A DNA stretch of 64,000 bases, from the NCBI GenBank assembly GCA_031555055.1, contig JAVBUT010000002.1, positions 210,165 to 274,164 of the forward strand, read 5' to 3'. The notes below the pieces were generated by a model that was not told the origin of the DNA, made no database searches, and was given only the letters and a program-made list of their open reading frames with translations. The translations under genes were made by a program, and so were the position numbers. Origin of the DNA: Alphaproteobacteria bacterium (lineage in GTDB: Bacteria; Pseudomonadota; Alphaproteobacteria; Rs-D84). Positions 8,028-63,885 of the stretch are shown in pieces (the stretch's first letter is position 1; each line of letters opens with the position of its first letter).

Positions 8028-8033
8028 AAAAAC

Positions 8034-13471: not shown

Positions 13472-13766
13472 CCATTAGCGCATAACAAATAGCGTATAGC
13501 GATTAGCAAATAGTTACAGGTGCGAACATTTTGTCGTCATACCGGCGACTTGTCCACCGAAGCCTTGGCGAAGGTCGGAGCGCCTGTATAACGACCAGTG
13601 TGAAATATTTTTATTTTTTACAAAATACCGAATTCGGGTTATTTAAAACACAAATTTTGGAACAGAATATAATAAATAGGAAACGTTTCTTTTGTAATAA
13701 AAGAGGCTTATTCCATAGAAGATGCTATGCGCTAATCGCTATACGCTATTTGCTATGCGCTAATGG
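13472..13766. mobile_element. MITE-like element: about 43-bp near-perfect terminal inverted repeats (family A, tagc-rich) flanking about 210 bp of non-coding sequence
   Basis: ccattagcgcataacaaatagcgtatagcgattagcaaatag at 13472-13514 versus the reverse complement of gctatgcgctaatcgctatacgctatttgctatgcgctaatgg at 13724-13766. The internal ORF 13531-13770 is judged spurious. Confidence 0.65.
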
Positions 13767-13840
13767 TTAATGACTATTAACTATTTGCTATTGATCATTT
13801 AATTGCTATAATAATTCCGATAAGAAAAAAAGAGATTACG

Positions 13841-15607
13841 TTGAGAAAGATAGTAGAAAGATCCATGCTGGGCAAAGCGTGGGTTTGCGCGACAGAGTAT
13901 GAAGAAAACACGCCCAGCAGTACGATTTTAAAAGAAGACTTGTTAAAGAAAATATTGGAATCGCGCGGCGTTCGTAGCGGGGTCGATACCAGCAAGTTTT
14001 TAAATCCCAGCATAAAAGAATACATGCCCGACCCCAGCGTGCTGGCCGATATGGATTCGGCGGCGCGTATAATTGTCGACAATATTGTCGCCGGGCGGAA
14101 AATTGCCATATACGGCGACTATGACGTGGACGGAATAACGTCCAGTGCGATCATGGTGAAATATCTGCGTGCGGTTGGCGCAAACGTCGTATGGCACCTG
14201 CCAACGCGCGAAGGCGAAGGGTATGGTCTGAACTGTGATGCCGTCAGTGCGATCGCCGCGGACGGGGTCAATCTGATCGTGACCGTCGATTGCGGAATCA
14301 GCGGCGTGGAAGAAATTGCGCTGGCTAAAAAACTGGGGCTGGATGTCGTTGTTACCGATCATCATTCGCCTGACGGGAATCTGCCGGCGGCCGACGCGGT
14401 CGTGAATCCCAAACGCCTGGACGATACGTCCGGGATGTCTTATCTGGCGGGTGTCGGCGTGGCTTTTATGACACTGGTCGCCGTGAATAGAGAACTGAAG
14501 TCCAGAAATGACGATAAATTCCAAATTCCGCATTCTTTATTTTTGATCGATCTGATGGATTTGGTCGCGCTGGGGACGATATGCGACACAATGCCGTTGG
14601 TGGGACTGAATCGTGCGTTTGCTGCGACCGGCCTGAAAGTTCTGGCCAAGCGAAACAATGTCGGCCTGCGCGCGTTGATGGATATTGCAGTAATTAAATA
14701 GCAGACCAAATACAGCGTGATGTTCGCGCTGGGGCCGCGGTTGAATGCGGCGGGCCGTCTGGATTCTGCGGCGCCGGCGCTGGAACTGTTGTTGACGGAC
14801 AATATACTGGTCGCGAACGATCTGGCGGCAAAATTAAACCGCATGAACCAGGAACGCATAGATGTTCAAAATGCAATCATGATAAGTGCGACCGAAATGG
14901 CCCAGAAATGTTGCGCTTTGGGAAAATGCAGCCTGTTCGTATGTGGCGATAACTGGCGCACTGGGGTTATGGGGATCATCGCCGGGCGGCTGAAAGACAA
15001 ATATAACCTGCCGACATGTGTTGCGACGAAATGCGACGGCGTGATTGACGGGTCCGGCCGTTCTATACCGGGCGTCGATCTGGGGCGCATTGTCCATGAT
15101 GCGGCGGCATTGGGAATAATCAGCGGCGGCGGCGGCCATGCGGCGGCGGCCGGGTTTACTTTGCCGGCAGAGAATGAACAGAAATTCTGCGAATTTTTGG
15201 AAAAATCCGTCTTGGCGCAGTTGGATGGGAAAATTCCGGAAAACGAAACGGTTGTTGATGCCGAAATGGATGCCGGTGGCGCAACGATGAAGCTGGTGGA
15301 ACAACTGGCGGAACTGGAACCGTTCGGCCAGGCCAATCCGGAACCGACACTGGTACTGCGTGGCGGGACATTGGCCCACGCGACGATAATGGGCAAGGGC
15401 GGAACGCACTTGCGCGGATATATCAATACAGGCAACGGATCGCGCCTGGCGTTTGTGGGATTTAATATGGTCGGGACGCCGGTCGGTGATTTTTTGCTGG
15501 ACGATGCGCATACAAATACTAAAATGATGATGTTGGGAAAGTTAAAGGAAAACGAATACCAAGGCCGCGTATCGGCACAGTTCATTTTGGAAGACTTGGC
15601 AATTTAA
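13841..15607 (+). pseudogene. recJ: recJ single-stranded-DNA exonuclease interrupted by an in-frame TAG at 14699-14701 (two ORFs 13841-14701 and 14717-15607 in the same frame)
   Basis: DHH motifs (YGDYDVDG, DHH) in the first part. Conserved FALGPRLNAAGRL and DHHA1 region in the second part. The frames are identical and separated by a single amber codon. Confidence 0.6.
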
Positions 15608-15637
15608 TGAAGAATGAAAAGTGAAAAATGAAAAATT
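15606..15637. repeat. ATGAAAA-type heptamer array immediately after the recJ stop
   Basis: aatgaagaatgaaaagtgaaaaatgaaaaatt. Confidence 0.55.
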
Positions 15638-15685
15638 AAATTCATTTTGACTTAATGGTTTTTCAAAATAAAAAAAGGAACAGAT

Positions 15686-16312
15686 ATGAAATTTTTTTTA
15701 AAGTCATTATTCATTGTTAGTTTTTCATTTTTTATTCCGACATTTGCGTATGCGTCGGTTGACAAGGCTTTGGTGGATTCGGCTGAAACTTATCTGAATT
15801 CTATCACCGGGCTGAACGGAAAATTTACACAGAATGCGAACGGCAAGAAAAGCAATGGGACATTCGACATGCTGCGCCCGGGCAAAGTTCGCCTGGATTA
15901 CAAAGACATGCCGGTACAGTTGATATCGGACGGTCAGGATTTGTATTTCTTTGACAAGTCGCTGGACCAGATCACGACCGTGCCGCTGACCAGTACGCCG
16001 GCCGGGATATTGGTACGCAAGAACATCAATTTACGCAATGCGGATATCAAGGTAACCGAAACAAAACAGAATGCCAAGACTTTCGCGCTGACCATGCATA
16101 TGCGCGATAATGAAGGTGTCGGCAAAATGACTGTCGTATTCGACAATGCGCCGATAAAGCTGAATTCATGGACGGTGTCGGACGCCACAGGGACCAAGAC
16201 GGATGTGGTATTCAACGATCTGAAAACAAAAACCGATTTTGCAAAAAACTATTTCCAGATACAGCGTCACAAGACTGCGACTACATCCGGCGGCGACAGC
16301 TATTATGATTAA
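15686..16312 (+). CDS. lolA: outer-membrane lipoprotein carrier protein LolA
   Basis: Signal peptide plus LolA pattern F.Q.......G.....RPG..R..Y......SDG..LY.FD..L.Q.T. Confidence 0.7.
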   Translation: MKFFLKSLFIVSFSFFIPTFAYASVDKALVDSAETYLNSITGLNGKFTQNANGKKSNGTFDMLRPGKVRLDYKDMPVQLISDGQDLYFFDKSLDQITTVPLTSTPAGILVRKNINLRNADIKVTETKQNAKTFALTMHMRDNEGVGKMTVVFDNAPIKLNSWTVSDATGTKTDVVFNDLKTKTDFAKNYFQIQRHKTATTSGGDSYYD

Positions 16313-18321: not shown

Positions 18322-19680
18322 ATGAAAAAAAATATTCGGCGATTTTTTATTGCTGTTTCTATCTTATTAAATTTGTCCGCATGTGACCTGCAGCCAAAGA
18401 TTACCGCACTGCCGGATACGGTCGGTGACTTTATATCCACGCGGTATCCGGCATTGCTGGCGGATCCGACAACCCAGCCAGAAATATACGATTCCGCTGC
18501 GACCGATTACGGCGTTTATGCGTCTCCGGAACTGTACGGCACATCCGGTGAATCCAGCATGGATGATTATCTGATGTACGCCAGTGTGGACGATTACACA
18601 TTGCGGCCGCAACAGACCCAGGTTGTCCGGGTTCCGATTATCGAAACAAAATCCGGTCAGACGGTTATTGTCAGCACCCCCAGCCCAATGGACGATTATC
18701 TGATGGTGCCCGCGTACGAGCATGTTGTTCACGACACGGTCGAGGTAATTGTATCCAAAGGCGACACTCTGTATTCCATATCCAAGAAATATTCGACCAC
18801 GGTTGGCGAATTGGCGACGATGAATAAATTGTCCGCGCCATACGCGTTGTCGGTTGGCCAAAAGATAAAAGTTCCGGTGCTGAAGACTGTCCCGGTGATA
18901 GAGCCGGCACCGATCGTCACCGCCGCGCCGATCATGGCGACACCGGTCAAGGCAGAAGTAGTAGAAGTGACCGTTACCAAGGGCGACACATTGTATTCCA
19001 TGTCGCGCAAATATGCTTTGCCGGTCAATGATCTGGCGGTTATGAATAAATTAAAACCACCGTTTACGCTGTCTGTTGGTCAGAAATTAAAAGTGCCAAA
19101 AATAACGGATGTTGCAATGCCGGACAAGACAATCGTGCCGGTGCGAACCACGACTGTGCCGACATCGCCAATTGTCGCGGCATCGCCGACACCGGTGCCG
19201 AAAACGGTAACACCGATACCGGTCAGACCGATTGCAACGCCGGCGCCGGCAAAGGTATCCAGCGCGCCGACCGCGCCATTGCCTAAAATAACATCGCGGT
19301 CATCGTCAAAGTTTTCCTGGCCGGTGCGCGGAACGATATTGTCCGGATATGGCGCAAAATCGACAGGCTTGTTCAACGACGGAATCAATATCGCGGCCAG
19401 TGCCGGCACCAAGGTCGGTGCGGCTGAAAACGGCGTCGTCGCATATGCGGGCAATGAACTGAAAGGTATGGGTAACCTGGTAATCGTCCAGCATTCAGAC
19501 GGCTGGATGACAGTCTATGCGCATATGGACCAGATGTCCGTGCGACGCGGCGTCAAGGTTACCGTGGGTCAGAAAATCGGAACTGTCGGCAAGACCGGCA
19601 AGGTTGACCGTCCGCAACTGCACTTTGAAATCCGCAAGGGAACCAAGGCGTACGATCCGAATGCATATTTAAAGAAATAA
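18322..19680 (+). CDS. nlpD: NlpD-like lipoprotein with two LysM domains and a C-terminal M23 peptidase domain
   Basis: Lipobox LSAC. Two LysM repeats (VSKGDTLYSISKKY...GQKIKVP). C-terminal M23 fold (AYAGNELKGMGNLVIVQH...HFEIRKG). Confidence 0.8.
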   Translation: MKKNIRRFFIAVSILLNLSACDLQPKITALPDTVGDFISTRYPALLADPTTQPEIYDSAATDYGVYASPELYGTSGESSMDDYLMYASVDDYTLRPQQTQVVRVPIIETKSGQTVIVSTPSPMDDYLMVPAYEHVVHDTVEVIVSKGDTLYSISKKYSTTVGELATMNKLSAPYALSVGQKIKVPVLKTVPVIEPAPIVTAAPIMATPVKAEVVEVTVTKGDTLYSMSRKYALPVNDLAVMNKLKPPFTLSVGQKLKVPKITDVAMPDKTIVPVRTTTVPTSPIVAASPTPVPKTVTPIPVRPIATPAPAKVSSAPTAPLPKITSRSSSKFSWPVRGTILSGYGAKSTGLFNDGINIAASAGTKVGAAENGVVAYAGNELKGMGNLVIVQHSDGWMTVYAHMDQMSVRRGVKVTVGQKIGTVGKTGKVDRPQLHFEIRKGTKAYDPNAYLKK

Positions 19681-19800
19681 AATTAAAGACAATGGCACAT
19701 CTGGTGACGGGGCCGGTGGCTTATGTATGTTTAATACACAACGCCATCGGCCTCGCCATCATCTGCACCATTCTTTTTAATTTTAAACAGCAGAGTTTAA
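19681..19800 (+). repeat. family-C stop-codon-adjacent element, diverged copy, directly 3 prime of nlpD
   Basis: taaaattaaagacaatggcacatctgg...ggtggcttatgtatgtttaatacacaacgccatc...cattctttttaattttaaacagc. Homologous to 42437-42565 and 63758-63885. Confidence 0.6.
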
Positions 19801-32865: not shown

Positions 32866-33345
32866 ATGATTTTGGCAGATTTCAAGGATTTTCCCCGACA
32901 GGGTCGGGTTATTGGAATAGACTGGGGCGCGCGACGTATCGGCGTCGCGGTGTCTGACGAATCTCGCGAATTTGTGTTCACGCGGGACGTGATAACAATC
33001 AGGAATCGGGAATCCACCGTTGCCAAGGCTTTGGCGGACAAGCCAGGAATCGGTGAAATTATAAAATTGGTAAAATCCGAAAAAATCGTCGGGATAATAA
33101 TCGGCTTGCCGGTGCATGCCGACGGGACGGACTCGGCGACGACAAAAATGGTTCGCGAATTCGCGGACGAATTGTCCGGTCAGACGGATTTGCCGGTCGT
33201 ATTTATCGAAGAGAATTTAACATCGGTCGCCGCAGCGGAGAGGAGTCAGGAGTCAGGAATCAGGAACAAGAATTTTTCGATTGATTCAGAGTCTGCGAAA
33301 ATAATACTGGAAAACGCAATCGCGATGATACGACGAATGGGATAG
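32866..33345 (+). CDS. ruvX: YqgF/RuvC-like Holliday-junction resolvase / pre-16S rRNA nuclease
   Basis: Motifs GIDWGARRIGVAVSD and IIGLP. Two in-frame heptamer triplet inserts at 32996-33017 and 33239-33267. Confidence 0.75.
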   Translation: MILADFKDFPRQGRVIGIDWGARRIGVAVSDESREFVFTRDVITIRNRESTVAKALADKPGIGEIIKLVKSEKIVGIIIGLPVHADGTDSATTKMVREFADELSGQTDLPVVFIEENLTSVAAAERSQESGIRNKNFSIDSESAKIILENAIAMIRRMG

Positions 33346-40739: not shown

Positions 40740-40743
40740 ATTA

Positions 40744-40773
40744 AATGAAAAATGAAAAATGAAAAGTGAAAAA
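40744..40773. repeat. ATGAAAA-type heptamer array between the TcpQ-like gene and the secretin gene
   Basis: aatgaaaaatgaaaaatgaaaagtgaaaaa. Confidence 0.55.
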
Positions 40774-40828
40774 TAATTCCTTGGTCATTGCATTTTTCCA
40801 AAGACTTGAAACACATAGGTGAGAGAAT

Positions 40829-42436
40829 ATGTACAAGATATTAAAAGTACTTTTCATTTTTAATTTTTCCTTTTTCATTTTGACTGGGTGCGTAAAGAAG
40901 GAATCCGCCCAGGTGGCGTCCGCCGTCGACCAGGACTTTGTCAATGCGCACGATGCGTTCGAAATGGCGAAAAATCCGCGCGCCAAGGTTACCAGCACCG
41001 ATACCGTGTCAATGTCCGAAGGTGTTTGGCTGGGGGCGAAATCCACTTTGCTGGAACATAAAAACAATTTGCCGGGCACATACGAAAATGACACAGGTGT
41101 GACAATCCTGTTGAATGAGCCCGTATCGTTACAGGTTTTGGCCAACAATATTTCATCCATAACGAATATTCCTGTCAAAATCGACAGCCAGGTAAATACT
41201 GAAAAATTAAAAAAGACCATGAATATTGCCTATACCGGCAAGTTGTCTGGTTTGCTGTCCCAGGTTTCGACAGATCTGGATTTGTTGTGGTATTACGACA
41301 AAAGCTCTATCGTGTTTTATGAAACGGAAACAAAAACATTCACACTGTATGCGCTGGGGACGGATGTCGCGTACCAGTCTGTAATCCGTACGGATGACGG
41401 CAACGGCGTTTCATTGGAATCTAATTTAAAAGAATGGGAAGAAGTCGAACGCACGATCGGATCGATTGTCGGCAAAACAGCGAATGCAAACTTTACCGTA
41501 TCTAAAAGCTTGGGCACGATCACGGTTACCGCGCCGCCTTCGATCCAGCACCGCGTCAGCGAATACATCGCACGCCAGAACAAGCGTTTGTCCCAGCTGG
41601 TGACGATCGACGTAAAGGTTCTGCAGGTGTCCATGAACAACAACACCGCGTTTGGCCTGAACTTGGCGATGGCGATTAATTCTGCGGCGGGTCTGAATAT
41701 CGTTGCGAATCCGAAAAACAATCTGCAAACCACCGAAGCCAGCACAATGAATGTCGCGGTGCTGTCGGGATTGTCATTTGCGGACGCTGCAGGCAAGGTT
41801 CCGGCAGGCGCTACACCGGACCAGATCAATTCGGGCAGTCTGAAAAATATCGCAGGAACTGATGCGCTGATCAGTGCGCTGGCCAAGCAAGGCAAAATAT
41901 CGCTGGTGACGAACGTTGGGGTTACGACACGCAACAACCGCGTCGCCCCGGTCAGCAACACCCGCACAACCGGATATATCAAACGTTTTGAATCACGCAA
42001 TTTTACAACTGTCGAATCCAGCACTGTGGACCAGGATGATTTGGAAACAGGATTCAGCATGCAGCTGTTGCCTAATGTTCTGGAAAATGGAAAAATCTTG
42101 TTACTGTTCAAAATGTCGATTCGTGAACTGTTGCAGATGCAGACGCAGAAAATCGGCGAAGTGACATTGCAGTTGCCAGACGTAGAAGAGCGCAGCTTTA
42201 TGCAGGAAGTAATTATGGAATCCGGCCAAATGCTGGTTCTGTCGGGATTTGAACGTCAGACGAACAATGATACGCGTTATGGCTTGGGCGATCCGGACTT
42301 TATGGCGCTGTCGGGTTCGCGCGAATCCCAATCGACCAAGGACGTTTTGGTTGTCATCCTGACACCGCAAGTACTGGTCAGCCCGATGGATGCAGAGCGG
42401 TCTATCCAGCAAAACTGGGGCGCACCACTAAATTAA
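40829..42436 (+). CDS. lipoprotein secretin (type IVb pilus TcpC/BfpB-like, GspD/PilQ superfamily)
   Basis: Lipobox ILTGC. C-terminal secretin domain with conserved ending ...STKDVLVVILTPQVL. Confidence 0.65.
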   Translation: MYKILKVLFIFNFSFFILTGCVKKESAQVASAVDQDFVNAHDAFEMAKNPRAKVTSTDTVSMSEGVWLGAKSTLLEHKNNLPGTYENDTGVTILLNEPVSLQVLANNISSITNIPVKIDSQVNTEKLKKTMNIAYTGKLSGLLSQVSTDLDLLWYYDKSSIVFYETETKTFTLYALGTDVAYQSVIRTDDGNGVSLESNLKEWEEVERTIGSIVGKTANANFTVSKSLGTITVTAPPSIQHRVSEYIARQNKRLSQLVTIDVKVLQVSMNNNTAFGLNLAMAINSAAGLNIVANPKNNLQTTEASTMNVAVLSGLSFADAAGKVPAGATPDQINSGSLKNIAGTDALISALAKQGKISLVTNVGVTTRNNRVAPVSNTRTTGYIKRFESRNFTTVESSTVDQDDLETGFSMQLLPNVLENGKILLLFKMSIRELLQMQTQKIGEVTLQLPDVEERSFMQEVIMESGQMLVLSGFERQTNNDTRYGLGDPDFMALSGSRESQSTKDVLVVILTPQVLVSPMDAERSIQQNWGAPLN

Positions 42437-42565
42437 AATTAAATACAACAACGCATTTGGCGCGATTTGGGGTGGCTTATGTATGTTCAATACACTACGC
42501 CACCCCAAATCACACCAACTACATCATTCTCTTTAATTTTAACAGCCCGGTTTTGGGCCGTTTTT
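42437..42565 (+). repeat. family-C stop-codon-adjacent element directly 3 prime of the secretin gene
   Basis: taaaattaaatacaacaacgcatttggcgcgatttggggtggcttatgtatgttcaatacactacgccaccccaaatcac...cattctctttaattttaacagcccgg. 93% identical to 63758-63885. Confidence 0.75.
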
Positions 42566-42570
42566 AATTT

Positions 42571-42620
42571 AGTCAATAGTCTTTAGTCACTAGTAGGGGC
42601 GCATATTTGCGCCCGTATGT
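42571..42620. repeat. family-B half element (tagtca repeats + taggggcgcatatttgcgccc hairpin)
   Basis: agtcaatagtctttagtcactagtaggggcgcatatttgcgcccgtatg. Compare 62397-62544. Confidence 0.6.
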
Positions 42621-44867: not shown

Positions 44868-44979
44868 AACGCCCAACGGGCGTTCTTTATTTTAATATTC
44901 AAAGTGCAATTGAACTTTGCACTTTGAACTTTGTACATTTTATGATATGATACAGCCATAACATAGGTGGGGAAATTTC

Positions 44980-45816: not shown

Positions 45817-45845
45817 AAAATCCCGCGATGCGGGATTTTTTAACA

Positions 45846-45931
45846 ATTAGCTCATAGCAAATAACATATAGTGTTTAGCGTATAGTATATTGTTAATCGC
45901 TATGCGCTATATGCTATGGACTATGCGCTAG
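45846..45931. repeat. family-A palindromic element (tagc-rich inverted repeat)
   Basis: ttagctcatagcaaataacatatagtgtttagcgtatag ... ctatgcgctatatgctatggactatgcgctag. Confidence 0.55.
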
Positions 45932-45953
45932 TTATTATTCTATACTCACCCTT

Positions 45954-46973: not shown

Positions 46974-47315
46974 ACATCGTAATGTCAATACAGTGTCTAT
47001 ACACGTGGCGGAAATCCGGTAAAAAACCGAATCGGTGTCAAAAAATAAATCTGAAATTTTTCGACCAGAAAAACTTGCAAATCAAAAATAATCTTATAAC
47101 TTAACTGACGTATCCAAACGATTGAGAAATCAATCAGAATATGAACGATAAAGGTTGTAAGAAAAAACAATTTTTTTAATGGCTAAATAAAACCGCCGGT
47201 AAAAAAATTGTTTTTTTCTTAGGTGGTTTTTACAGCCTTGATCAGGATGCGGCAGGAAACTCTGGGGTTGGGCGATATCTGTTGTCGCCATTGGGAACAG
47301 GAAAGGAGAAACAGC

Positions 47316-48590
47316 ATGCAGGCAGCAGCAAAACAAACGGTTACAAATGTGGAATCAATAATGGCGGCAATTGCCGCAAAGATTGATCCCGCGGCGTTTA
47401 AATCCTGGATCGCCCCATGCAAATTATCTGTTCAAAACAATACCCTGTTCATTCATTCTAACAATCAATTTTCCGCCGACTTTATCAAATCCGTTTATTC
47501 CAACACTTTGGGCGACGTCGCCGACGAATTCGGATTGGGTCTGTTCATATGCGTTAACGGCGCATGCGCCCCGGCCGCACGCACGGCAAACGACAATACC
47601 GTAAAAACATTCGTGCCGGCTGCACCGGTTGCCACGACCACAACATTCGATAACTTTATCATATCTGATGAAAACGCATTCGTTGTTTCCGCATGCAAGA
47701 AAATGGCGTCTGGCGCGGCGACTTTTTCACCGCTGTTTATATATGGCGCGGCGGGATGCGGGAAATCATTGCTGGTCGATTGCATTAATTCCGAATCAGC
47801 TGGCCGCACACTGGTCATGACCGGAAACCAGTTTGTTTCCGAATTCCTGCGTGCGATGCGCGAACATTCCGTCTTTGCGTTCAAGGATTTCTGCCGAAAG
47901 TGCGACACATTCATCATGGACGATGTTCATACGCTGGCCGGCAAACGCGCGTCGCTGGACGAATTTATGAATCTGGTTATGGATTTGCGCGCTGCAAATA
48001 AAAATATTGTTCTGACATCGAATGTTGCGCCTGGCGATCTGTCCGGGTTTGACCGCCGTCTGCAATCATTGCTGGCGTCGGGATTGGTCGCAGATGTCGC
48101 GACACCGTCTAAAAATGTTGCGCGCACGATTATGGCGCGTGCCGGCGTTGCGGCGAACGTTGCCGAATATCTAGCGGGCCGCATAAACGGTGACGGTCAC
48201 TTGATTGCGGGCGTTGCCAAAAAAATCAACACGTATGCCGAACTGATGAATTCTTTGGTCACATGCGACGTCGCCGAAAGATTATTGTCTGACACATTGG
48301 TAAAATCCAAGACTCCGCTGGCCATGGTAAAATCCATGTGCGCCAGACTGGGGGTATCGTATGACGCGGTATGCGGAACATCGCGCGTGCGCAATGTCGT
48401 CCGTGCGCGCCAGATTATGATGACCGCGCTGAAGTCTGCGACTTCGCTATCGCTGGCGGAAATCGGACGTCTGGTCGGCGACCGTGATCACGCGACGGTT
48501 CTGTATGCGATTTCGACAACCGCAAAATTAAAATCATCCGATCTGATTCTGGGCGCAGAAATCGACCAGATGATTGCCGAATGCAGATAA
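47316..48590 (+). CDS. dnaA: chromosomal replication initiator DnaA (divergent)
   Basis: TFDNFIISDEN...PLFIYGAAGCGKSLL (Walker A), FIMDDVH (Walker B), arginine finger, and domain IV SRVRNVVRARQIMM...GDRDHATVLYA. RBS GAAAGGAGAAAC. 424 aa. Confidence 0.8.
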   Translation: MQAAAKQTVTNVESIMAAIAAKIDPAAFKSWIAPCKLSVQNNTLFIHSNNQFSADFIKSVYSNTLGDVADEFGLGLFICVNGACAPAARTANDNTVKTFVPAAPVATTTTFDNFIISDENAFVVSACKKMASGAATFSPLFIYGAAGCGKSLLVDCINSESAGRTLVMTGNQFVSEFLRAMREHSVFAFKDFCRKCDTFIMDDVHTLAGKRASLDEFMNLVMDLRAANKNIVLTSNVAPGDLSGFDRRLQSLLASGLVADVATPSKNVARTIMARAGVAANVAEYLAGRINGDGHLIAGVAKKINTYAELMNSLVTCDVAERLLSDTLVKSKTPLAMVKSMCARLGVSYDAVCGTSRVRNVVRARQIMMTALKSATSLSLAEIGRLVGDRDHATVLYAISTTAKLKSSDLILGAEIDQMIAECR

Positions 48591-48598: not shown

Positions 48599-49227
48599 TG
48601 GGTAGCGCGACCTTGTCCCAAGGTCGCACGTGACAACCTTGGGACAAGGTTGTCCTACCATTTTCAAGTTAAATGAAAAAATGCAAAACGATGATATATT
48701 TTTCAGAAAGAAATTAGATCATGAAATTCCATATTGGGTTAAGTCGGATTCAATATTTTTTATAACAATAAATACATTGCCACGTGGAAAAAATAATCTT
48801 GCGACTTTTAATATTTCGAAAATAATTAGAGATAGTCTGCGATTTTATCAATCAAAAGGTTTGATATATGTTGAATATTTACTGCTGATGCCGGATCATT
48901 TGCATATGCTGGTCGCATTTAATGATATCCCTATGGAAAAATTTATACAACAATGGAAAAAATATATTTCCAGAAATACAAAGGTTGAATGGCAGCGTGA
49001 TTTTTTTGATCATCGGATACGAAATGGCGAATCTTTGCAAGAAAAAATAGATTATATATCAAATAATCCAGTTCGTAAAAATTTTGTGGTTAATTCGTTT
49101 GATTGGAAGTATCAGTGGTTGAGAGGGATGCATGAATTATCAGATTTTGATTTAGGATCATAATTAGGCATGACCGGTTTGTCCCAAACTGGTCATGTGC
49201 GACCTTGGGGACAAGGTCGCGCTACCC
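48599..49227 (+). mobile_element. REP-RAYT-REP unit: IS200/IS605-like HUH tyrosine transposase (RAYT) flanked by inverted pairs of REP hairpins
   Basis: Left gggtagcgcgaccttgtcccaaggtcgc + gacaaccttgggacaaggttgtc. Right catgaccggtttgtcccaaactggtcatg + gcgaccttggggacaaggtcgcgctaccc. The outermost arms are mutually inverted. Confidence 0.7.
48681..49163 (+). CDS. REP-associated tyrosine transposase (RAYT, IS200-like TnpA)
   Basis: HUH motif MPDHLHMLV. RAYT-type motif WQRDFFDHRIRN with downstream catalytic Tyr region (EKIDYISNNP). About 30% GC. Confidence 0.7.
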   Translation: MQNDDIFFRKKLDHEIPYWVKSDSIFFITINTLPRGKNNLATFNISKIIRDSLRFYQSKGLIYVEYLLLMPDHLHMLVAFNDIPMEKFIQQWKKYISRNTKVEWQRDFFDHRIRNGESLQEKIDYISNNPVRKNFVVNSFDWKYQWLRGMHELSDFDLGS

Positions 49228-49303
49228 GAGAGCGCTTCACTAAAGGACTTTTATTATACGGTTTTTTCTGATATAATGTCAGCATCAAATAGGGAGTTTT
49301 AGG

Positions 49304-50731
49304 ATGAAGAAATTAGCTGTTTTTTCAGTTTTCTTAGGCGTATTGGGTGTGTTTGGTGCCGGACATGCGAAGTCTTGTACTCTGCAGTCTTGTGATACAA
49401 GTAGCCTTACAGCCGGATGGTTGCGCGCGCAATATCCGGATGGGACCCAGTGTTATTGGTGCGGTGGAGTTTCTTCAAATAATTGTGAAAACGGAACAAA
49501 CGTTGCGGTTATAAATGGTTTGGGCAACATTACCAATATTTACGAATGTGATACAGGTTGGACAAATGGCTGGAGAGAAAATAATCCCGGCAAATTTTGT
49601 AATAATTCGGACTTAAAAGGCGAAAGTTTAAGTTCAATAAAATTAAATAATACGGACATGTATTATAGCTTGGATGGCGGGATAAAAACAACAGGTTATA
49701 TTTCTGGTGATGCGACAGTTCTTAAAGCCGGTAACATAGCTTGCATTGTGGTGAAATGTAAATCAGGATACGAACCGAATGTAGCAAAAACAGCCTGTGT
49801 AGAAGTTGGCCGCGGCAGTTGCGAAGCCAGAACACATATGAAATGGGATGCAGGAAAATGCATTTGTAAAACGCTGGGAGAGGTGGAAACATCCGATAAA
49901 GCAAGATGTGTTGATCCAAAAAAGTTAGCTAAAGAGGAAGAATGCAGAAAGGGTGGCGCAACATTTGATGGCCTAGATGGATGTGTTTGCAAAGACCGTG
50001 CTTTTGGGACAGGACAAGTATGGAACGATACGCAAAAAAAATGCGTATTGTCTGATGAAGAATTAAAAGCACAAAAGGACAAAGCAACAGAAGAACTGGA
50101 AAAGCGCCGCAAAAACTGTACAACAGACAAAGCAAAAGCGTCCGGTGCGTCATGGAATGGGAGAACGTGTCAGTGCGGCGCCACCAAGGGGTGGGTTGAA
50201 TCGCGCGGAGAATGTGTATTGAATGCAAAAGTTGTTGCGTGTAACGCCCTGCGCGATCGTGGTATCAAGGTGGATTGGAGCGAATTGCAGAACGACTGTG
50301 TATGTACAGAAAACGGCTATCGGATGAATGATGCTAAGACGGATTGTATAGAAAGTTCCGACGCAAGACAAGCGCGCGAAGATAAGCAAAAACAAGAAGA
50401 AGCAGACAAGGCGGAAAAGGCACGCTTGGAAATAGAAAGGAGAAGCAAGACAACGATAACAGTTATTACGGATACTTCGAAAAAGTTGACCGATATCGGC
50501 AGTGCCCACTTTGACGTCAGCGCATGGAAAACAGCCGAAGGTACATTTAATACTTCGCGTTTGATTTCGGATTCTGTTGCGGGTGTCGTGCTGGGGACGG
50601 CCGGTGGATTAATCACCAGTAACGTTATCAAAAACAATCAGGTCGACAGCGGATTTGATGATATATCATGTACCGTCGGCGGCCAGGTCGTCGCCGGATG
50701 GGGCGATCAGTTCAGGGTTGGAATAAGATAA
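49304..50731 (+). CDS. secreted Cys-rich repeat protein with central Lys/Glu coiled-coil segment
   Basis: Signal peptide. More than 40 Cys in recurrent C-x-C, W.G..C and G.C.C patterns. No confident family. Confidence 0.45.
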   Translation: MKKLAVFSVFLGVLGVFGAGHAKSCTLQSCDTSSLTAGWLRAQYPDGTQCYWCGGVSSNNCENGTNVAVINGLGNITNIYECDTGWTNGWRENNPGKFCNNSDLKGESLSSIKLNNTDMYYSLDGGIKTTGYISGDATVLKAGNIACIVVKCKSGYEPNVAKTACVEVGRGSCEARTHMKWDAGKCICKTLGEVETSDKARCVDPKKLAKEEECRKGGATFDGLDGCVCKDRAFGTGQVWNDTQKKCVLSDEELKAQKDKATEELEKRRKNCTTDKAKASGASWNGRTCQCGATKGWVESRGECVLNAKVVACNALRDRGIKVDWSELQNDCVCTENGYRMNDAKTDCIESSDARQAREDKQKQEEADKAEKARLEIERRSKTTITVITDTSKKLTDIGSAHFDVSAWKTAEGTFNTSRLISDSVAGVVLGTAGGLITSNVIKNNQVDSGFDDISCTVGGQVVAGWGDQFRVGIR

Positions 50732-50759
50732 AAAAATCCGGCGGATGCCGGATTTTTTT
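50731..50759 (+). terminator. rho-independent terminator
   Basis: aaaaaatccggcggatgccggattttttt. Confidence 0.7.
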
Positions 50760-50761
50760 AA

Positions 50762-50985
50762 ATGAAAAATGAAGAATGAAAAATGAAAAATGAAAAATGA
50801 AGAATGAAGAATGAAAAATGAAGAATGAAAAATGAAAAGTGAGGAACAAAATAGAATATAAAAGTTATAAAAGTACAGAGTAAAGATATTATGAATCACT
50901 CTGTACTTTTGTAACTATTAAATAATAACTGTTGTGCGTAAAATCACTGATTACTTTTCATTTTTCATTCTTCATTTTTCATTTA
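50762..50985. repeat. composite palindromic heptamer element: 12 tandem ATGAA(A/G)A units, a central 13-bp-stem hairpin, then 4 inverted TTTTCAT units
   Basis: atgaaaa atgaaga ... x12 at 50762-50845. Hairpin aaaagtacagagt...actctgtactttt at about 50870-50912. ttttcatttttcattcttcatttttcattt at 50955-50984. Confidence 0.7.
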
Positions 50986-51013
50986 AAAACCGCGCCATTG
51001 GCGCGGTTTTTAA
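50986..51013 (-). terminator. rho-independent terminator of parE
   Basis: aaaaaccgcgccattggcgcggttttt. Confidence 0.7.
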
Positions 51014-51092: not shown

Positions 51093-53069
51093 TTAAATGT
51101 CAAGATCTCTTACAAATTTTGCGTGTTCTGTGATAAAGCGGAATCGGAATTCCGGTTTCTTGCCCATTAATTCGGACACCACGGTTTTGGTGCGTTCTGC
51201 GTCTTCGGCGCCTTCTTCGGTGCGTGGCGGCAGTTCGACGCGGATCAACCGGCGTGTTTTCGGGTTCATTGTCGTTTCTTTCAACTGGTTCGGCATCATT
51301 TCGCCAAGCCCTTTGAATCGCGATATTTCAATTTTTTTGTTTTTATATTTTCCTGCCTTTAATTCTTCCAATTCTTCATCCGTATCGACATATATCGATT
51401 CGGTGCCATGCGTCAATTTATACAGCGGCGGGCATGACAGATACAAGTGTCCGCCATGTATCAGGCCCGGCATGTCGCGATAGAAAAACGTCATCAGCAG
51501 TGCCGCGATATGCGATCCATCGACGTCCGCGTCGGTCATGATTATTATTTTTTCATAACGTAATTTTGATTCGTCCCAATCGCGCGCCGTGCCGGCGCCG
51601 ATGATGTCGATCAATTCGTTCAGTTCTTTGTTCGCGCCGAACTTTTCATCAGAGTTAGAGAACACATTCAAAACTTTTCCGCGCAAAGGCATGATTGCCT
51701 GGGTCGCGCGGTCGCGCGCCTGTTTTGCGGTGCCGCCCGCCGATTCGCCTTCGACGATAAACAGTTCTGTGCCCGCGATTCCATGTTTGGCACAATCGGC
51801 CAGTTTGGCCGGCATGCGTGCGCGTTTGGTCGGCGTCTTGCGCGCGATGTCTTTGACAGCCTTGGTCTTGATACGTGCGTTCGCCAGATTGATCACAAAG
51901 TCCAGCAATGCGTTCGCAGTTTTCGGATCAGACGCCAAGAACATTTCCCATGGATCGCGCAGCGCGTTTTCAGTGTATCGCGCGATTTCCGGGTTGGACA
52001 GTTTTTCCTTGGTCTGGCCCAGGAACTGTGGCGATTTATAGAATACGGAAACAATTGATGCGACCGAATCAAAAACGTCTTCGCTGATGATGTTTGCGGC
52101 GGCCTTGTTATTTATTTTTTCGCCATAGTTTTTAATGCCGCGCGTGATCGCGGATTTAAATCCGCTTTCGTGTGTGCCGCCGTCGATTGTCGCGATCGTG
52201 TTACAGTACGACGCGAAAAAGCCATCGTCGGATGCCGCGCCGTTTTCATCGGTTAAAAATGTCAGTGCCCATTCCACACGGCCAGCATCGTCCGGAAAAT
52301 CAACCATGCCGGAAAATATTTTCGGCAGAATGCGCGGCTTGTCGTTTGTGCGTTCCGCCAAAAAGTCCGCGACGCCATTGGGATAATAAAACTCTGTCTT
52401 GGCCGGGATATTCATATCTTCGGTAATTAATTCCGGATTACAGTTCCATTCGATTTTTACGCCGCGCGACAAGAAAGCCTTGGCCCGCGCCATGCGATAG
52501 ATTTTCACCGGCTTGAACGTTGCATTCGCGCCGAAAATATCGTCGTCCAAAGTAAAGCGGATCGCGGTGCCGTGTCCACGTGTCGCGTCGCCCCGGCTTA
52601 CCGGGCTGGTGGTTTTGCCGCGCGCGAATGTTTGGGTCCAGATGTATCCGTCCTTGGACACTTTGACGGTCATTTCAGACGACAAGGCATTTACGACCGC
52701 GCCGCCGACCCCGTGCAGACCGCCGGATGTTTTATATACGTTATTGTTGAACTTGCCACCCGAATGCAGTGTGGTAAAGATGATCTCCAGCGCGGATTTG
52801 CCAGGATATTTCGGGTGTTCGTCGACCGGGATTCCGCGGCCGTCGTCGATGATTTCAATTGTCTTGGCGTCGATCATGTTTACGACGATTTTCTTGGCAA
52901 AGCCGGCGACGGCTTCATCAATAGAATTGTCCATGATTTCCACAGGCAGGTGGTGCCAAGCCTTTTCATCCGTGCCGCCGATGTACATTCCGGGGCGCAG
53001 ACGCACTGGTTCAAGACCCTCCAAAACTTGGATATCCGATGCAGAATAGTTGTTGTTAGTTTCAGCCAT
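51093..53069 (-). CDS. parE: DNA topoisomerase IV subunit B (GyrB/ParE family; length fits ParE)
   Basis: GHKL ATPase motifs (LEGLEPVRLRPGMYIGGT, GLHGVG), Toprim EGESAGG and PLRGKVLN. 658 aa from ATG at 53067-53069. Confidence 0.75.
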   Translation of the reverse strand: MAETNNNYSASDIQVLEGLEPVRLRPGMYIGGTDEKAWHHLPVEIMDNSIDEAVAGFAKKIVVNMIDAKTIEIIDDGRGIPVDEHPKYPGKSALEIIFTTLHSGGKFNNNVYKTSGGLHGVGGAVVNALSSEMTVKVSKDGYIWTQTFARGKTTSPVSRGDATRGHGTAIRFTLDDDIFGANATFKPVKIYRMARAKAFLSRGVKIEWNCNPELITEDMNIPAKTEFYYPNGVADFLAERTNDKPRILPKIFSGMVDFPDDAGRVEWALTFLTDENGAASDDGFFASYCNTIATIDGGTHESGFKSAITRGIKNYGEKINNKAAANIISEDVFDSVASIVSVFYKSPQFLGQTKEKLSNPEIARYTENALRDPWEMFLASDPKTANALLDFVINLANARIKTKAVKDIARKTPTKRARMPAKLADCAKHGIAGTELFIVEGESAGGTAKQARDRATQAIMPLRGKVLNVFSNSDEKFGANKELNELIDIIGAGTARDWDESKLRYEKIIIMTDADVDGSHIAALLMTFFYRDMPGLIHGGHLYLSCPPLYKLTHGTESIYVDTDEELEELKAGKYKNKKIEISRFKGLGEMMPNQLKETTMNPKTRRLIRVELPPRTEEGAEDAERTKTVVSELMGKKPEFRFRFITEHAKFVRDLDI

Positions 53070-53083
53070 GTTTTTATTCCCGT

Positions 53084-53132
53084 AGGGGCGGCTGGAAAGC
53101 CGCCCAGGGCGCGTTTCCACGCGCCCCTACAA
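53084..53132. repeat. nested taggggcg...cgcccctac palindromic element in the parE 5 prime leader
   Basis: gtaggggcggctggaaagccgcccagggcgcgtttccacgcgcccctac. Confidence 0.6.
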
Positions 53133-56561: not shown

Positions 56562-57983
56562 TCAAGAATGAAAATAAGAATATATTTTCATCGCGGCGGA
56601 TTTTCCAAGTCCGGGTACTTTTAACAATGCGGACAATTCGGCATTCGCGATTTCGCGCACCGATCCGAAATGATGCAGAACGCTGCGCTTGCGCGCGGGG
56701 CCGATCCCTTCGATTTCATCCAATCGCGACGCGGTGACCTGTTTTGCGCGGATCGTGCGGTGGAATGAAATCGCGAAACGGTGCGCTTCGTCGCGGACCG
56801 CGCGCAGCAATAAAAACAGTTTCGAATTTTTGGGCAAATCCGTGCTGATCGATCCGTCTGGCAAAATAAAATGTTCGTCGCCGTCGCGAACCTGGCCCTT
56901 GGTGACGCCCAGGATTGGTATGTTCATCGCCGTCGTATGCGCGATGTTCCACTGGGCCGGACCGCCGTCAACGATAATAAGGGATAAGGTTTGAGGTTCG
57001 AGGTTCGAGGGATTAATCGCCCTGGCGACAAATTCTTGCATCATGGCGATGTCGTTTCCGGCCGCGGCCATGTTTTTCAATTTAAAATGCCGATAGTCTG
57101 ATTTTATAAATCCGTCATGTCCGAATACGATCATGGCGCCGACGGGACTGCGCCCGAACAGGTGCGAATTGTCGAATACCGCCACGCGATCAATTTTTAT
57201 CCCCAGCCATTTTTCCAATTCTGCGACGGAATCACGCCAGCTGATTCCGGATTCTTTTTTCTGTTTTATTCCGCGGACGGATGTATGCGTCAGCGCAGCG
57301 ATACGATCGCGGGCGTTCGCCGCTGATTCAAAATCCATGTTGTCGGAAAATTTTTTCATTTGCGCCGACAGTTCCGCAATAACAGGCGCGCTGTCGCCAG
57401 TCAATATGCGACGGGCCAAGCGAACGTTATCGTTGTATTCGGTTTGTTGGATGCAACACGGTGCGCTGCACCGGCCGATCTGGTGCAATAAACACGGACG
57501 AGTACGGTTTTTCATAAACGTGTCGTTGCATGTGCGCAGCCGGCATACTTTTTGAATTGTCTTGATCGTTTCGTTCAGGCTGGATACGGAAGGATACGGG
57601 CCAAACACGTCGCGTTTTTGCGAAATCTTGCCACGGAATTTCATCAGACGCGGAAATTCATGATTGGTCAACGCCAACATCGGATACATTTTCCCGTCGG
57701 TCAGCATTATGTTGTAACGTGGCTTTTCTGTTTTGATCAGTTTTTCTTCCAGAATCAATGCCGCCGATTCGTCCGCGGTGGTATCCCATTCGACACGCGT
57801 TACCAAAGACCGCATTACCTGCTTGTGCGTTTCCAGTTTTGAAATGTCCACATATTGCCGCAAACGCGCGGAAATATCGCGCGCTTTGCCCACGTACAAC
57901 AGGGTGCCATCCGCGTCGTACATCTTGTAGATACCTGGCGCTTTAGGACTTCCTTCAATCAAATCAGAAAATTGAATATTCAT
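56562..57983 (-). CDS. uvrC: excinuclease ABC subunit C (compact form)
   Basis: GIY-YIG N-terminus (GIYKMYDADGTLLYVGKA), Cys cluster, RNase-H-like endonuclease domain and C-terminal HhH. Heptamer triplet insert at 56988-57010. Confidence 0.75.
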   Translation of the reverse strand: MNIQFSDLIEGSPKAPGIYKMYDADGTLLYVGKARDISARLRQYVDISKLETHKQVMRSLVTRVEWDTTADESAALILEEKLIKTEKPRYNIMLTDGKMYPMLALTNHEFPRLMKFRGKISQKRDVFGPYPSVSSLNETIKTIQKVCRLRTCNDTFMKNRTRPCLLHQIGRCSAPCCIQQTEYNDNVRLARRILTGDSAPVIAELSAQMKKFSDNMDFESAANARDRIAALTHTSVRGIKQKKESGISWRDSVAELEKWLGIKIDRVAVFDNSHLFGRSPVGAMIVFGHDGFIKSDYRHFKLKNMAAAGNDIAMMQEFVARAINPSNLEPQTLSLIIVDGGPAQWNIAHTTAMNIPILGVTKGQVRDGDEHFILPDGSISTDLPKNSKLFLLLRAVRDEAHRFAISFHRTIRAKQVTASRLDEIEGIGPARKRSVLHHFGSVREIANAELSALLKVPGLGKSAAMKIYSYFHS

Positions 57984-62375: not shown

Positions 62376-62396
62376 AATGCCCGTTCGGGCATTTTT

Positions 62397-62544
62397 TAGT
62401 CATTAGTCTTTGGTCAATAGTCATTAGTAGGGGCGCATATTTGCGCCCATATGATTTCATATCATGGTTTACAAAACATGGCGAATTTACATTCGCCCCT
62501 ACTAATGACTATTGACTAATGACTATTGACTAACGACTATTGAC
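62397..62544. repeat. family-B composite palindromic element: tagtca-rich inverted arms around a taggggcgcatatttgcgccc hairpin
   Basis: Left arm gtcattagtctttggtcaatagtcattagtaggggcg versus right arm cgcccctactaatgactattgactaatgactattgac. Confidence 0.65.
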
Positions 62545-62638: not shown

Positions 62639-63757
62639 ATGGAATTTTCAGTCTTTCGCCAGGTTTTGATCCGTGCGCTGGGGCATATGCAGTCTATCGT
62701 TGAAAAACGCGCGACTCTGCCGATCTTGATGAACGTCAAGATAGAGGTTGCAGACGATATGGTGTTAAGTGCAACCAATGTCGACTTGGAATTGGTCGAA
62801 CATGTCGCTGCGGACATCACATTGCCGGGCAAGACGACCGTTCCGGTTCAAATGCTGTACGATATTGTGCGCAAGCTGCCTGATGACGCTGAAATCAACT
62901 TTAAACAATCCGGCGACCAGCTGGTTGTGTCCAGCGGTCGCGCGATATTCCGTCTGCCGACATTGCCTGCGGAAAATTTCCCGGCGATGGCGGGCGCAAA
63001 CCTGACCACTAAATTCCAAATGACAACCGGCGATCTGGGGCACCTGATCAACAAGACAAAATTTGCGATTCCGGTTGACGATGTCCGCTATCACTTGGGC
63101 GGGATATATTTCCATATCACCGAAGAAGGCAAAAGCAAAATGCTGACCGCGGTTGCGACCGACGCCCAGCGTATGGCGCTGTGCGAAATGCCGGTACCCA
63201 GCGGCGCGACCGACATGCCGTCCGTAATTTTGCCGCGTCGTGTTATCGGGGAACTGTCAAAGTTGCTGGAAGATGCGACTGTTGATGATGTTATGGTCGA
63301 ACTGTCCGATACCAAGGCCCGCTTTACCGTCGGCAGTGCCATACTGACATCCAAACTGGTTGATGCCCAATATCCAAATTATCGCGTCGTTATTCCAAAG
63401 GGCAACGACAAGATCGCAACATTGGACCGTAAATCGTTCGTCAATGCCGTTGACTTGGTTTCCGTGGCGTCCCAGGATAAAACAAAATCAGTGCAATTGA
63501 CATTCAGCATGAACAAGCTGGTTATTAACGCATCCAGTCCGGAAAACGGAACCGCAACCCAGGAATTGGATGTGGAATACAACGGTGACAATTCCTTTAC
63601 GATTTTGTTCAGTGTTAAATTCTTGCTGGACATCACATCTCAGGTCGAAGGAAACAAGTTCCAGATGGAAATGCAGGACCCGATGTCTCCGACAATTCTG
63701 AAATCTACAGAAAAAAAGACGGATGCGTTGTTTGTCCTAATGCCGTTAAAGATGTAA
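62639..63757 (+). CDS. dnaN: DNA polymerase III beta sliding clamp
   Basis: Three-domain beta-clamp pattern. N-terminus MEFSVFRQVL...ILMNVKIEV. C-terminal MPLKM. Confidence 0.9.
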   Translation: MEFSVFRQVLIRALGHMQSIVEKRATLPILMNVKIEVADDMVLSATNVDLELVEHVAADITLPGKTTVPVQMLYDIVRKLPDDAEINFKQSGDQLVVSSGRAIFRLPTLPAENFPAMAGANLTTKFQMTTGDLGHLINKTKFAIPVDDVRYHLGGIYFHITEEGKSKMLTAVATDAQRMALCEMPVPSGATDMPSVILPRRVIGELSKLLEDATVDDVMVELSDTKARFTVGSAILTSKLVDAQYPNYRVVIPKGNDKIATLDRKSFVNAVDLVSVASQDKTKSVQLTFSMNKLVINASSPENGTATQELDVEYNGDNSFTILFSVKFLLDITSQVEGNKFQMEMQDPMSPTILKSTEKKTDALFVLMPLKM

Positions 63758-63885
63758 ATAAATTAAATATAACAGCGCATTTGGCGCGATTTGGGGTGGC
63801 TTATGTATGTTCAATACACTACGCCACCCCAAATCACGCTAACTACGCCATTCTTTTTAATTTATTACAGCCCGGTTTCGGGCAA
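63758..63885 (+). repeat. family-C stop-codon-adjacent element directly 3 prime of dnaN
   Basis: taaataaattaaatataacagcgcatttggcgcgatttggggtggcttatgtatgttcaatacactacgccaccccaaatcac...cattctttttaatttattacagcccggtttcggg. Followed by terminator at 63903-63930. Confidence 0.75.

Follow-up and report, generated by a model that had tools for sequence, protein, structure and literature searches.

Heptanucleotide repeat arrays and their inverted partners in a 64-kb region of a gut alphaproteobacterial genome

We analysed a 64,000-nucleotide stretch of the genome of an Alphaproteobacteria bacterium (GenBank assembly GCA_031555055.1, contig JAVBUT010000002.1, positions 210,165 to 274,164 of the forward strand; hereafter the window), focusing on tandem arrays of the 7-nt unit ATGAARA, the largest of which forms one side of a palindromic composite at 50762-50985. 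The composite lies between a 475-aa open reading frame (ORF; 49304-50731), whose protein has no Pfam or NCBIfam match, and a parE/gyrB-like gene on the minus strand (51093-53120) on which the ORF converges. Each gene has its own canonical terminator hairpin, and the composite sits between the two. A terminator scan and folding place the upstream one, an intrinsic, bidirectional-looking hairpin with a fold of its own (A-tract, CCGGCGGATGCCGG, T-tract), at 50729-50760, 3' of the ORF and abutting the left array; that of the parE/gyrB-like gene, also intrinsic (AAAAACCGCGCCATTGGCGCGGTTTTT), occupies 50985-51012. Between them are a left arm on the forward strand (50762-50845), with 11 clean ATGAARA units and a degenerate GTGAGGA (period 7, 11.9 copies and a score of 131 in Tandem Repeats Finder, TRF), a unique, AT-rich centre (50846-50954) with its own hairpin, and a right arm on the minus strand (50955-50984) made of four inverted units (TYTTCAT).

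The arms are in register: the inner 31 nt of the left array (50810-50840) and the right array (50953-50983) are 100% complementary, A/G unit variants included. A preliminary description made from the sequence alone had reported a palindromic composite between convergent genes, an inverted array at 50955-50984 and a 13-bp stem between the arms, all of which are present; the core stem (50869-50881 / 50898-50910) extends to arms of 26 nt at 88% complementarity (50856-50881 / 50898-50923). No second copy of the centre occurs in the window or at any compared locus. The single-strand fold of the region comprises the first terminator, a stretch of about 50 nt left unpaired, a stem of 34 bp that the central hairpin caps, and the second terminator, with a free energy of -105.6 kcal/mol (z -14.1; z -17.9 for the opposite strand). 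Being AT-rich and without a following U-tract, the array stem does not qualify as an intrinsic terminator, whereas both flanking hairpins do. A known RNA family was rejected as the identity of the composite, as the Rfam search returned nothing at the gathering threshold at this locus and only hairpin noise far below it among permissive matches; window-wide, two tRNAs were the only hits. The composite is probably little transcribed and needs no function, and at most it may add a further stem-loop or act as an insulator.

The order of A and G variants records part of the history of the left arm. Its units read AGAA|AG|G|AGAA, and the right arm reads AGAA, a pattern that the left arm shows in both its inner four and its outer four units, which points to past block duplications there. 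The outer seven or so left-arm units, predicted to be unpaired, look like a later expansion, by block duplication, of a symmetric 4+4 palindrome. Slippage in the large array, which the preliminary description had suggested, is thus borne out to the extent that past unit gains are recorded in this pattern.

The possibility that the composite, or its unit count, is a misassembly of low-complexity reads can be weighed against a second, independent assembly of this strain from short reads (Logan; SRR23967709). There the flanks are 100% identical up to the arrays, and both contigs (L001 and L002) end about 25 nt into them, at window positions 50784 and 50960. Ending as they do inside both arrays, they leave the 12-unit count and the join across the centre unconfirmed, which is the point in favour of an artefact; the identity of the flanks speaks against one, as does the fact that the same architecture is assembled through at other window loci and in many unrelated metagenome contigs, and we consider an artefact extremely improbable. 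It is worth noting that heptamer arrays fragment short-read assemblies. The only other copy of the proteins flanking the main locus is in that one short-read assembly, where they are 100% identical; apart from that copy, the closest homologue of the 475-aa protein shares 37% identity.

The composite is one of four loci in the window that together carry seven ATGAARA arrays, four forward and three inverted, and all those reported in the preliminary description, from 11104, 15606, 40744 and 50762 onward, are present. That the arrays are dispersed and non-random, as had been claimed, is confirmed by 28 matches to the two-unit pattern ATGAARAATGAARA, one mismatch being allowed, where shuffles that preserve dinucleotides predict 0.36, and TRF describes them as head-to-tail 7-nt repeats (period 7, 4.3-11.9 copies, 85-92% matches). 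Three of the four loci share one layout, a purine-rich forward arm, a centre and a TYTTCAT arm, and three of the four lie where one gene follows another on the same strand, the array preceding the next start by 0-55 nt. At the first, an array of four units on the forward strand (11104-11136) lies between the stop codon of an FeS-assembly gene (11078) and sufE, overlapping the sufE start as had been noted: the start codon (11128) belongs to the last unit, ATGAATA. This array is solitary, with neither an inverted partner nor a significant fold. The second begins on the TAA stop codon of recJ and lies 46 nt upstream of lolA (15606-15640, forward strand); its degenerate inverted arm (15706-15736, minus strand) lies in LolA signal-peptide codons (FIVSFSFFI) and agrees with (TTTTCAT)n at 24 of 28 positions. 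The two arms are 77% complementary, and their RNA fold is not significant (z -1.2). At the third, a forward array (40741-40774, forward strand) starts 2 nt after the tcpQ stop codon within an insertion of about 50 bp, and its inverted arm (40845-40880, minus strand) lies in the lipoprotein signal peptide of a secretin (LFIFNFSFFIL; 26 of 28 positions). Here the arms span 36 nt at 86% complementarity, and the RNA fold (z -2.8) has a loop that encloses the ribosome-binding site and AUG.

The signal-peptide arms stand out against the rest of the window. A scan for (TTTTCAT)n-like 28-mers recovered the known ATGAARA loci and the inverted arms at 15701-15739 and 40845-40887, and nothing more. When the N-termini of 69 ORFs were ranked by the same match, the secretin came first (26) and LolA second (24), with a median of 13; these are exactly the two genes that lie downstream of a forward array.

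These gene contexts bear on the proposal that the arrays are contingency (phase-variation) loci, in which 7-bp slippage switches or tunes adjacent genes such as sufE. Tandem units of 7 bp are prone to slippage, the large array has gained units in the past, a long ATGAAGA array differs between related contigs of another organism (9 vs 5 units), and heptanucleotide repeats drive phase variation of the hmw adhesins of Haemophilus influenzae (PMC8262952, PMC12721329). However, the phase shift expected of a 7-bp unit does not arise here: the forward arrays lie outside ORFs and leave the frames of sufE, lolA and the secretin unaffected, and that of sufE is set by the last unit at any copy number. 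ATGs do occur in all three frames, as the preliminary description stated; each ATGAARA unit also holds a TGA, and any reading frame opened by an in-array ATG ends after 5 codons. Housekeeping genes adjoin the arrays (SufE, LolA, RecJ, topoisomerase IV subunit B or ParE, and the TcpQ-associated secretin, the sole surface component among them), a 7-bp change in the signal-peptide arms would simply inactivate essential genes, orthologous 4-unit arrays are invariant in other organisms, and the only long array sits between terminators with no adjoining gene start. We therefore consider a contingency function, the use proposed in the preliminary description, very improbable.

Relatives were collected by a search with the parE-like protein, which returned 80 loci. 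These come from different species of gut Alphaproteobacteria resembling Candidatus Enterousia, the kind of organism to which the window belongs as well, and show 85-88% amino-acid identity. Conserved gene order around parE makes four orthologous spacers comparable. The tcpQ-secretin spacer measures 29-47 bp in 24 relatives (TAA...GCCGTAGGAGAATATAAAT-ATG) against 89 bp in the window, where the conserved ribosome-binding region is kept and is preceded by about 50 added bp that contain the ATGAAAA array. The other three concern palindromes of different heptamers described below: one at 45845-45935 is absent from the orthologous spacer in 45 of 45 relatives, one at 62396-62544 in 23 of 23, and one at 44898-44936 from the orthologous promoter in 44 relatives. 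Missing from all four comparable spacers (23-45 relatives), the arrays are recent lineage-specific insertions.

The secretin locus allows this comparison to be carried into coding sequence. The lipobox cysteine is at position 21 in the window and at position 20-21 in 27 relatives, so that length is unchanged, but the signal-peptide DNA that matches (TTTTCAT)n at 26 of 28 positions here does so at a mean of 14 and a maximum of 16 in those relatives, and its period-7 self-match is 21 of 28 against at most 15. The upstream arm is thus inserted, the centre is native, and the downstream arm overwrites a tolerant hydrophobic segment without changing its length. Such an overwrite excludes a cut-and-paste element as the source; intramolecular template switching could produce it, and the unchanged length fits templated conversion rather than block insertion.

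ATGAARA is only one of many heptamer units in this genome, and the preliminary description, although right that its arrays are real, had singled it out. Counting tandem periods in the window, we found 15 period-7 arrays against 0-3 for each other period within 4-13; period 7 is the sole enriched tandem period and is represented by at least eight unit families, which beside ATGAARA include TAGCGNA, TTAGTCA, CGTGANT, AAAGTGC, AGGAATC and others. Most intergenic period-7 arrays in the window are in-register inverted pairs, with fold z-scores of -3.9 to -13.8. The longest arms, of 47 nt, belong to a TAGCGNA / TNCGCTA pair at 13467-13771 (13467-13513 / 13725-13771), where they are 94% complementary in register around a 211-nt centre. 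An element of TTAGTCA/TTGGTCA units, reading TGACTAA on the right (62396-62544, in the gap from a terminator to the next promoter), has 43-nt arms at 91% (62396-62438 / 62491-62533; z -13.8) that flank a doublet of GTAG-type repetitive extragenic palindromic (REP) hairpins. Palindromes of TAGC type are present at 7159-7280 (z -6.7) and at 45845-45935 (z -4.4), the latter between a terminator and the -10 box of the next promoter, and a CGTGANT / ANTCACG palindrome lies at 8033-8110 (z -3.9). An AAAGTGC / TTGMACT palindrome at 44898-44936 (z -5.4) splits a conserved promoter between CTTTATTTT and the extended -10, TTTTGTGRTATAAT; its last TTGAAC is 16 nt from the -10 (TATGAT) and could replace the -35.

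Heptamer arrays also occur within five housekeeping genes, encoding a TrmB-like methyltransferase (663-689, minus strand), GltX (3140-3173), SufS (10410-10437 and 10463-10478), RuvX (33238-33267) and UvrC (56985-57011, minus strand). In four of the five the unit on the coding strand is AGRARTC, read as one cyclic peptide (RNQESGI) in different frames. The RuvX array takes the place of a segment that is conserved in 7 relatives (MGRVRVRD), with length unchanged; the UvrC array adds 4 residues relative to 12 relatives, and that of SufS about 6 relative to a solved homologue. The idea that the coding arrays are mirrored copies was rejected, as none of the five has an inverted partner.

Heptamer richness is patchy within the clade. 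Across 1.5 Mb from the 80 sister species we counted 34 period-7 arrays, a density about 10-fold lower than that of the window, and period 7 is not enriched overall; one locus (L006, 22 kb) has 6 arrays and a window-like density, and at most one array is present in the majority of the other 79 species. Palindromic arrays beside terminators nevertheless recur among the sisters, with TAGTGAA / TTCACTA around a GC hairpin in L006, TTAGTGR / CACTAAC in L045 and AAAGTGC / GCACTTT in L061, and single arrays abut terminators in L016, L049, L060, L073, L075 and L078. The AAAGTKC family is found in the window and at non-orthologous sites in L060 and L061.

Inverted arms and lineage-specific presence raise the question of non-autonomous mobile elements, namely miniature inverted-repeat transposable elements (MITEs), foldback or REPIN-like elements with terminal inverted repeats of heptamers and a transposase encoded elsewhere in the genome. 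The preliminary description had suggested a mobile repeat, and the part of that suggestion that stands is the lineage-specific insertion into orthologous spacers. Further points in favour are the occurrence of the same unit families at several loci, some of them non-orthologous (AAAGTKC in the window, L060 and L061), the constant orientation of the arms, as for terminal inverted repeats, the presence of in-register arms of 31-47 nt at 91-100% complementarity, and a gene for a REP-associated tyrosine transposase (RAYT) with GTAG REPs 1.6 kb from the composite, together with arrays that abut REP heads at 8547, 42568 and 62396. What does not stand is the element itself: centres are unrelated between copies in the window, at all compared loci and in metagenome examples, which led us to reject a MITE with a shared centre; the secretin centre is native, including its conserved ribosome-binding site, and one arm there replaces coding DNA in place without a change in length. 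Array boundaries show no convincing or consistent target-site duplications, the arms of the main composite are very unequal (12 vs 4 units), GTAG REPs are lacking from the ATGAARA elements, and the arrays have no linked transposase, the RAYT not being associated with them in 809 kb of array-bearing metagenome contigs. A classic MITE is unlikely, and we think mobile elements of any of these kinds improbable, if less plainly so than an artefact or a phase-variable switch.

The RAYT gene (48630-49163; NF047646, 87 bits against a cutoff of 80) deserves separate comment, as it directly follows dnaA. Together with the GTAG REPs it constitutes a repeat system separate from the ATGAARA arrays. The gene (region 48600-49230) is flanked by inverted GTAG-type REPs (GTAGCGCGACCTTG...) that occur in the window at the RAYT gene only. 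A second REP family (GTAGGGGCGCATATTTGCGCCC) has about 8 copies, near 8520, 8585, 42590, 53105, 53135, 54330, 62427 and 62480, and heptamer arrays abut its GTAG head at 8547-8566, 42568-42594 and 62396/62501, with units that resemble the REP head and flank. The GTAGGGGCGC REP family adjoins TAGTC-type arrays, not ATGAARA arrays, and the ATGAARA elements, which have neither a GTAG head nor a GC-rich palindrome, do not belong to the REP/REPIN class. In the 809 kb of array-bearing metagenome contigs, RAYT homologues are absent but for one weak match. A RAYT/REP link for ATGAARA was rejected on these grounds: the RAYT-flanking REP is confined to the RAYT gene, REPs do not adjoin ATGAARA arrays, and RAYT is not linked to them elsewhere.

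Two further features of the window were recorded. A separate MITE-like palindromic family of about 110 bp (TAAAATTAAA...TTATGTATGTTYAATACAC...TTTAATTTTA) occurs at 459-567, 19678-19785, 42433-42542 and 63757-63866, with arms that are 77-88% complementary; each copy starts at the stop codon of the gene upstream or no more than 10 nt ahead of it. The DnaA homologue (47223-48590) scores 249 bits against an NCBIfam equivalog cutoff of 344, and the gene that follows it is the RAYT, not dnaN.

Outside the clade, ATGAARA arrays are widespread. Four perfect units, (ATGAARA)4, are found on at least 120 metagenome contigs with a GC content of 0.34-0.63, as well as on 56 viral contigs; one of the former (L147) is assigned to Bacteroidales by a DUF6242 protein with Prevotella/Xylanibacter homologues. 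Array-bearing contigs (809 kb in total) contain 166 period-7 arrays against 9-58 for other periods, with units that include TAACTGA. On two unrelated metagenome contigs (L084, 1700-2000, and L133, 8100-8340), ATGAARA arrays alternate in tandem with a module of about 60 nt (L084) or of 84 nt (L133), a higher-order repeat that was not seen in the window. Our literature search returned nothing relevant on bacterial ATGAAGA or ATGAAAA arrays, and nothing on repeats in Enterousia.

The unit sequence itself is not special. Among viral contigs, composition-matched permutations of the heptamer are about equally common (AGTAARA 48, ATAGARA 63 and ATAAGRA 35, against 56 for ATGAARA), which speaks against a binder specific for the sequence and against horizontal sharing of the motif; a sequence-specific or horizontally shared ATGAARA motif was rejected on the strength of these three permuted heptamers, in viral contigs only. 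Among the listed metagenomic arrays, an inverted TYTTCAT partner lies downstream in 17 unique pairs and upstream in 1, and the centres of these pairs show no mutual resemblance; in inverted pairs with other units, the 5' arm has more A than T in 18 of 20 cases and more G than C in 17 of 18. Purine-first polarity is thus a general rule, and any mechanism must explain it. An origin from divergent gene starts (ATGAAAA encoding Met-Lys) predicts the opposite order of arms from that observed and was rejected, being plausible only as the seed of the sufE array.

Short arrays are stable in the comparisons available. Orthologous 4-unit arrays have exactly four units in two groups of human-gut contigs (5 and 4 members, with single-nucleotide polymorphisms in the flanks) and in a viral group of 9, a comparison that is blind by ascertainment to alleles with fewer than four perfect units. 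The long ATGAAGA array noted above has 9, 9 and 5 units in related contigs of another organism.

Polarity and gene context are also arguments for a cis-regulatory role, in which the heptamers would bind a putative RNA- or DNA-binding protein or act on ribosomes, tuning termination, mRNA stability or translational coupling at gene junctions; as a variant, they might serve as a cassette of all-frame stops with an overlapping ATGA restart, or as an A-rich leader. Beyond the same-strand junctions at three of the four window loci, about 35 of 54 solitary metagenomic arrays have their start at most about 20 nt from a co-oriented stop codon, '++' junctions being the commonest context, and the ribosome-binding site and AUG of the secretin fall within the loop of its hairpin. 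Reporter output was altered by heptamer-repeat deletion in Nostoc constructs (10.1101/2022.06.06.494920), and a translational role has been proposed for TAACTGA repeats (PMC4679880); regulatory effects at gene junctions have been a matter of speculation for both kinds of repeat. However, two terminators enclose the largest array, which has no gene start near it, the diversity of units within one genome and the equal frequency of permuted units mean that no single sequence-specific binder fits, and 24-45 related species have these junctions but no arrays in them. Neither sufE nor lolA shows a fold signal, and no ribbon-helix-helix or other DNA-binding domain was detected in 10 small or unknown ORFs. 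Regulation by either route, with a dedicated protein or through the stop-restart or leader variants, is a candidate that we take seriously while judging it unlikely.

The explanation that we favour, with confidence that is evenly balanced, is that the ATGAARA tracts are heptanucleotide microsatellites of the kind known as long simple sequence repeats (LSSR) or short tandemly repeated repetitive sequences (STRR), grown by slippage, mirrored by hairpin template switching and probably neutral. An array would first be seeded or inserted in tolerant DNA at a gene boundary, such as the sequence after a stop codon, an operon junction or the gap between a terminator and a promoter. It would then grow and shrink through replication slippage, longer arrays being the less stable. 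Frequently, an inverted copy would subsequently be made across a nearby segment by intramolecular (hairpin) template switching, giving a foldback whose 5' arm is rich in purines and whose 3' arm is rich in pyrimidines. Template switching is known to turn quasi-palindromes into perfect palindromes. At the main locus these steps would have produced a perfect 31-bp stem around a unique centre, with about seven units later added to the left arm, and selection would leave arrays where they are tolerated, namely downstream of stop codons, in the gaps that separate terminators from promoters, and in the cores of signal peptides. The host lineage has become prone to making and keeping 7-nt arrays of many units.

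Several observations weigh against slippage and neutrality as a sufficient account. Slippage in this genome is deduced from the internal pattern of one array and from other organisms, and the permutation control was run on viral contigs only. Plain slippage leaves unexplained both the spread of unit families to new loci and the same-length replacement of a coding patch in RuvX. The adjacency of solitary arrays to stop codons (about 35 of 54) and their strict purine-first polarity could point to a function, or to a mechanism with a direction, instead of neutrality. Finally, units recur across phyla, as with TTGGTCA/TTAGTCA, which is the Nostoc recO repeat, and TAACTGA, which co-occurs with ATGAARA in some contigs.

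A more speculative proposal, which we regard as doubtful, is that a directional templated process, and not ordinary slippage, writes arrays in scattered lineages of several phyla. It would replace 25-50-nt patches, intergenic and coding, with the purine-rich strand always 5' and co-oriented with the upstream gene; repair-coupled conversion, or conversion via single-stranded DNA or reverse transcriptase, are candidate routes. The same-length RuvX patch, the UvrC and SufS patches and the rewritten secretin and LolA signal peptides would fit such a process, which, if real, would supply proteins and regulation with novelty from a source not recognised before.

The window offers a useful setting in which to study the mechanism. 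It represents one heptamer-rich lineage among about 80 mostly poor sisters with conserved gene order, in which insertions are datable and can be mapped base by base, and a comparison of gene content across the sisters could reveal what genetically determines 7-nt instability. Signal-peptide cores and patches of RuvX, UvrC and SufS are overwritten by arrays, yet the genes are not destroyed. In practical terms, they can mislead the calling of gene starts and break short-read assemblies.

Tandem repeats of period 7 have been known in bacteria since 1990, under the name STRR, and the cyanobacterial STRR heptamers were reportedly described in that year by Mazel et al. The TTAGTCA/TTGGTCA unit of the element at 62396-62544 is the cyanobacterial STRR2. 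Its units read GACYAAT on the other strand and equal the GAC(C/T)AAT repeat upstream of Nostoc recO, a heptamer family thus common to Cyanobacteria and a gut alphaproteobacterium. To our knowledge, ATGAARA is not among the named STRR units, and the inverted-pair architecture is not a described STRR feature. In Nostoc PCC 7120, heptamer repeats lie near starts and promoters (10.1101/2022.06.06.494920). The present arrays resemble the STRR and Nostoc heptamers in forming several dispersed 7-nt families, often beside start codons or promoters, and in sharing TTGGTCA/TTAGTCA; they differ in belonging to another phylum and in forming inverted pairs.

Other systems share some of these properties. 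Contiguous 7-bp operator units, direct and inverted and near promoters, are bound by the omega (ribbon-helix-helix) repressor of inc18 plasmids, and some arrays of the relatives (AGTGATT in L045) resemble its consensus, WATCACW. However, omega acts on few plasmid operators with one consensus, whereas here there are many chromosomal sites and many consensuses; heptad operators of this kind were rejected, no ribbon-helix-helix domain being present in the 10 small or unknown ORFs. The likeness to REP/REPIN elements, MITEs and eukaryotic foldback elements extends to intergenic position, proximity to terminators, long hairpins and lineage-specific insertion, and foldback elements also have arms of short tandem sub-repeats. 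Unlike REP/REPIN elements and MITEs, the ATGAARA elements have no GTAG head, GC-rich palindrome, conserved centre or transposase association, and one arm was made in place. The hmw1A/hmw2A repeats of H. influenzae (PMC8262952, PMC12721329) likewise have a slippage-prone 7-bp unit upstream of genes; they lie in the promoter or 5' untranslated region of surface adhesins and their copy number demonstrably tunes expression, whereas the arrays described here adjoin housekeeping genes, the short ones being stable and the largest placed between terminators.

Closest in form are two groups of repeats from wider surveys. Direct TAACTGA repeats occur in marine Beggiatoaceae, Cyanobacteria and Bacteroidetes (PMC4679880), and resemble the present arrays in their 2-6 forward copies just upstream of starts, stops in all frames and cross-phylum patchiness, and in their co-occurrence with ATGAARA arrays in some metagenome contigs; in the TAACTGA genome one unit dominates and 1 of 170 sets is indirect, whereas here there are many units and frequent inverted pairs. 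Period-7 LSSRs are the commonest LSSR class and have a sporadic phylogenetic distribution (Mrazek et al. 2007, as summarised in PMC4679880). The arrays agree with LSSRs in their tandem 7-nt units, the dominance of period 7, occurrence in sporadic lineages, mostly intergenic position and slippage as the proposed origin, and differ in forming many inverted pairs with a fixed purine-first polarity, some of which overwrite coding DNA. Gut Enterousia-like Alphaproteobacteria were not found described as LSSR-rich in the literature searched. The tracts are members of this known but poorly understood class of period-7 repeats, the commonest of the long simple repeats, on which the locus described here offers a handle.

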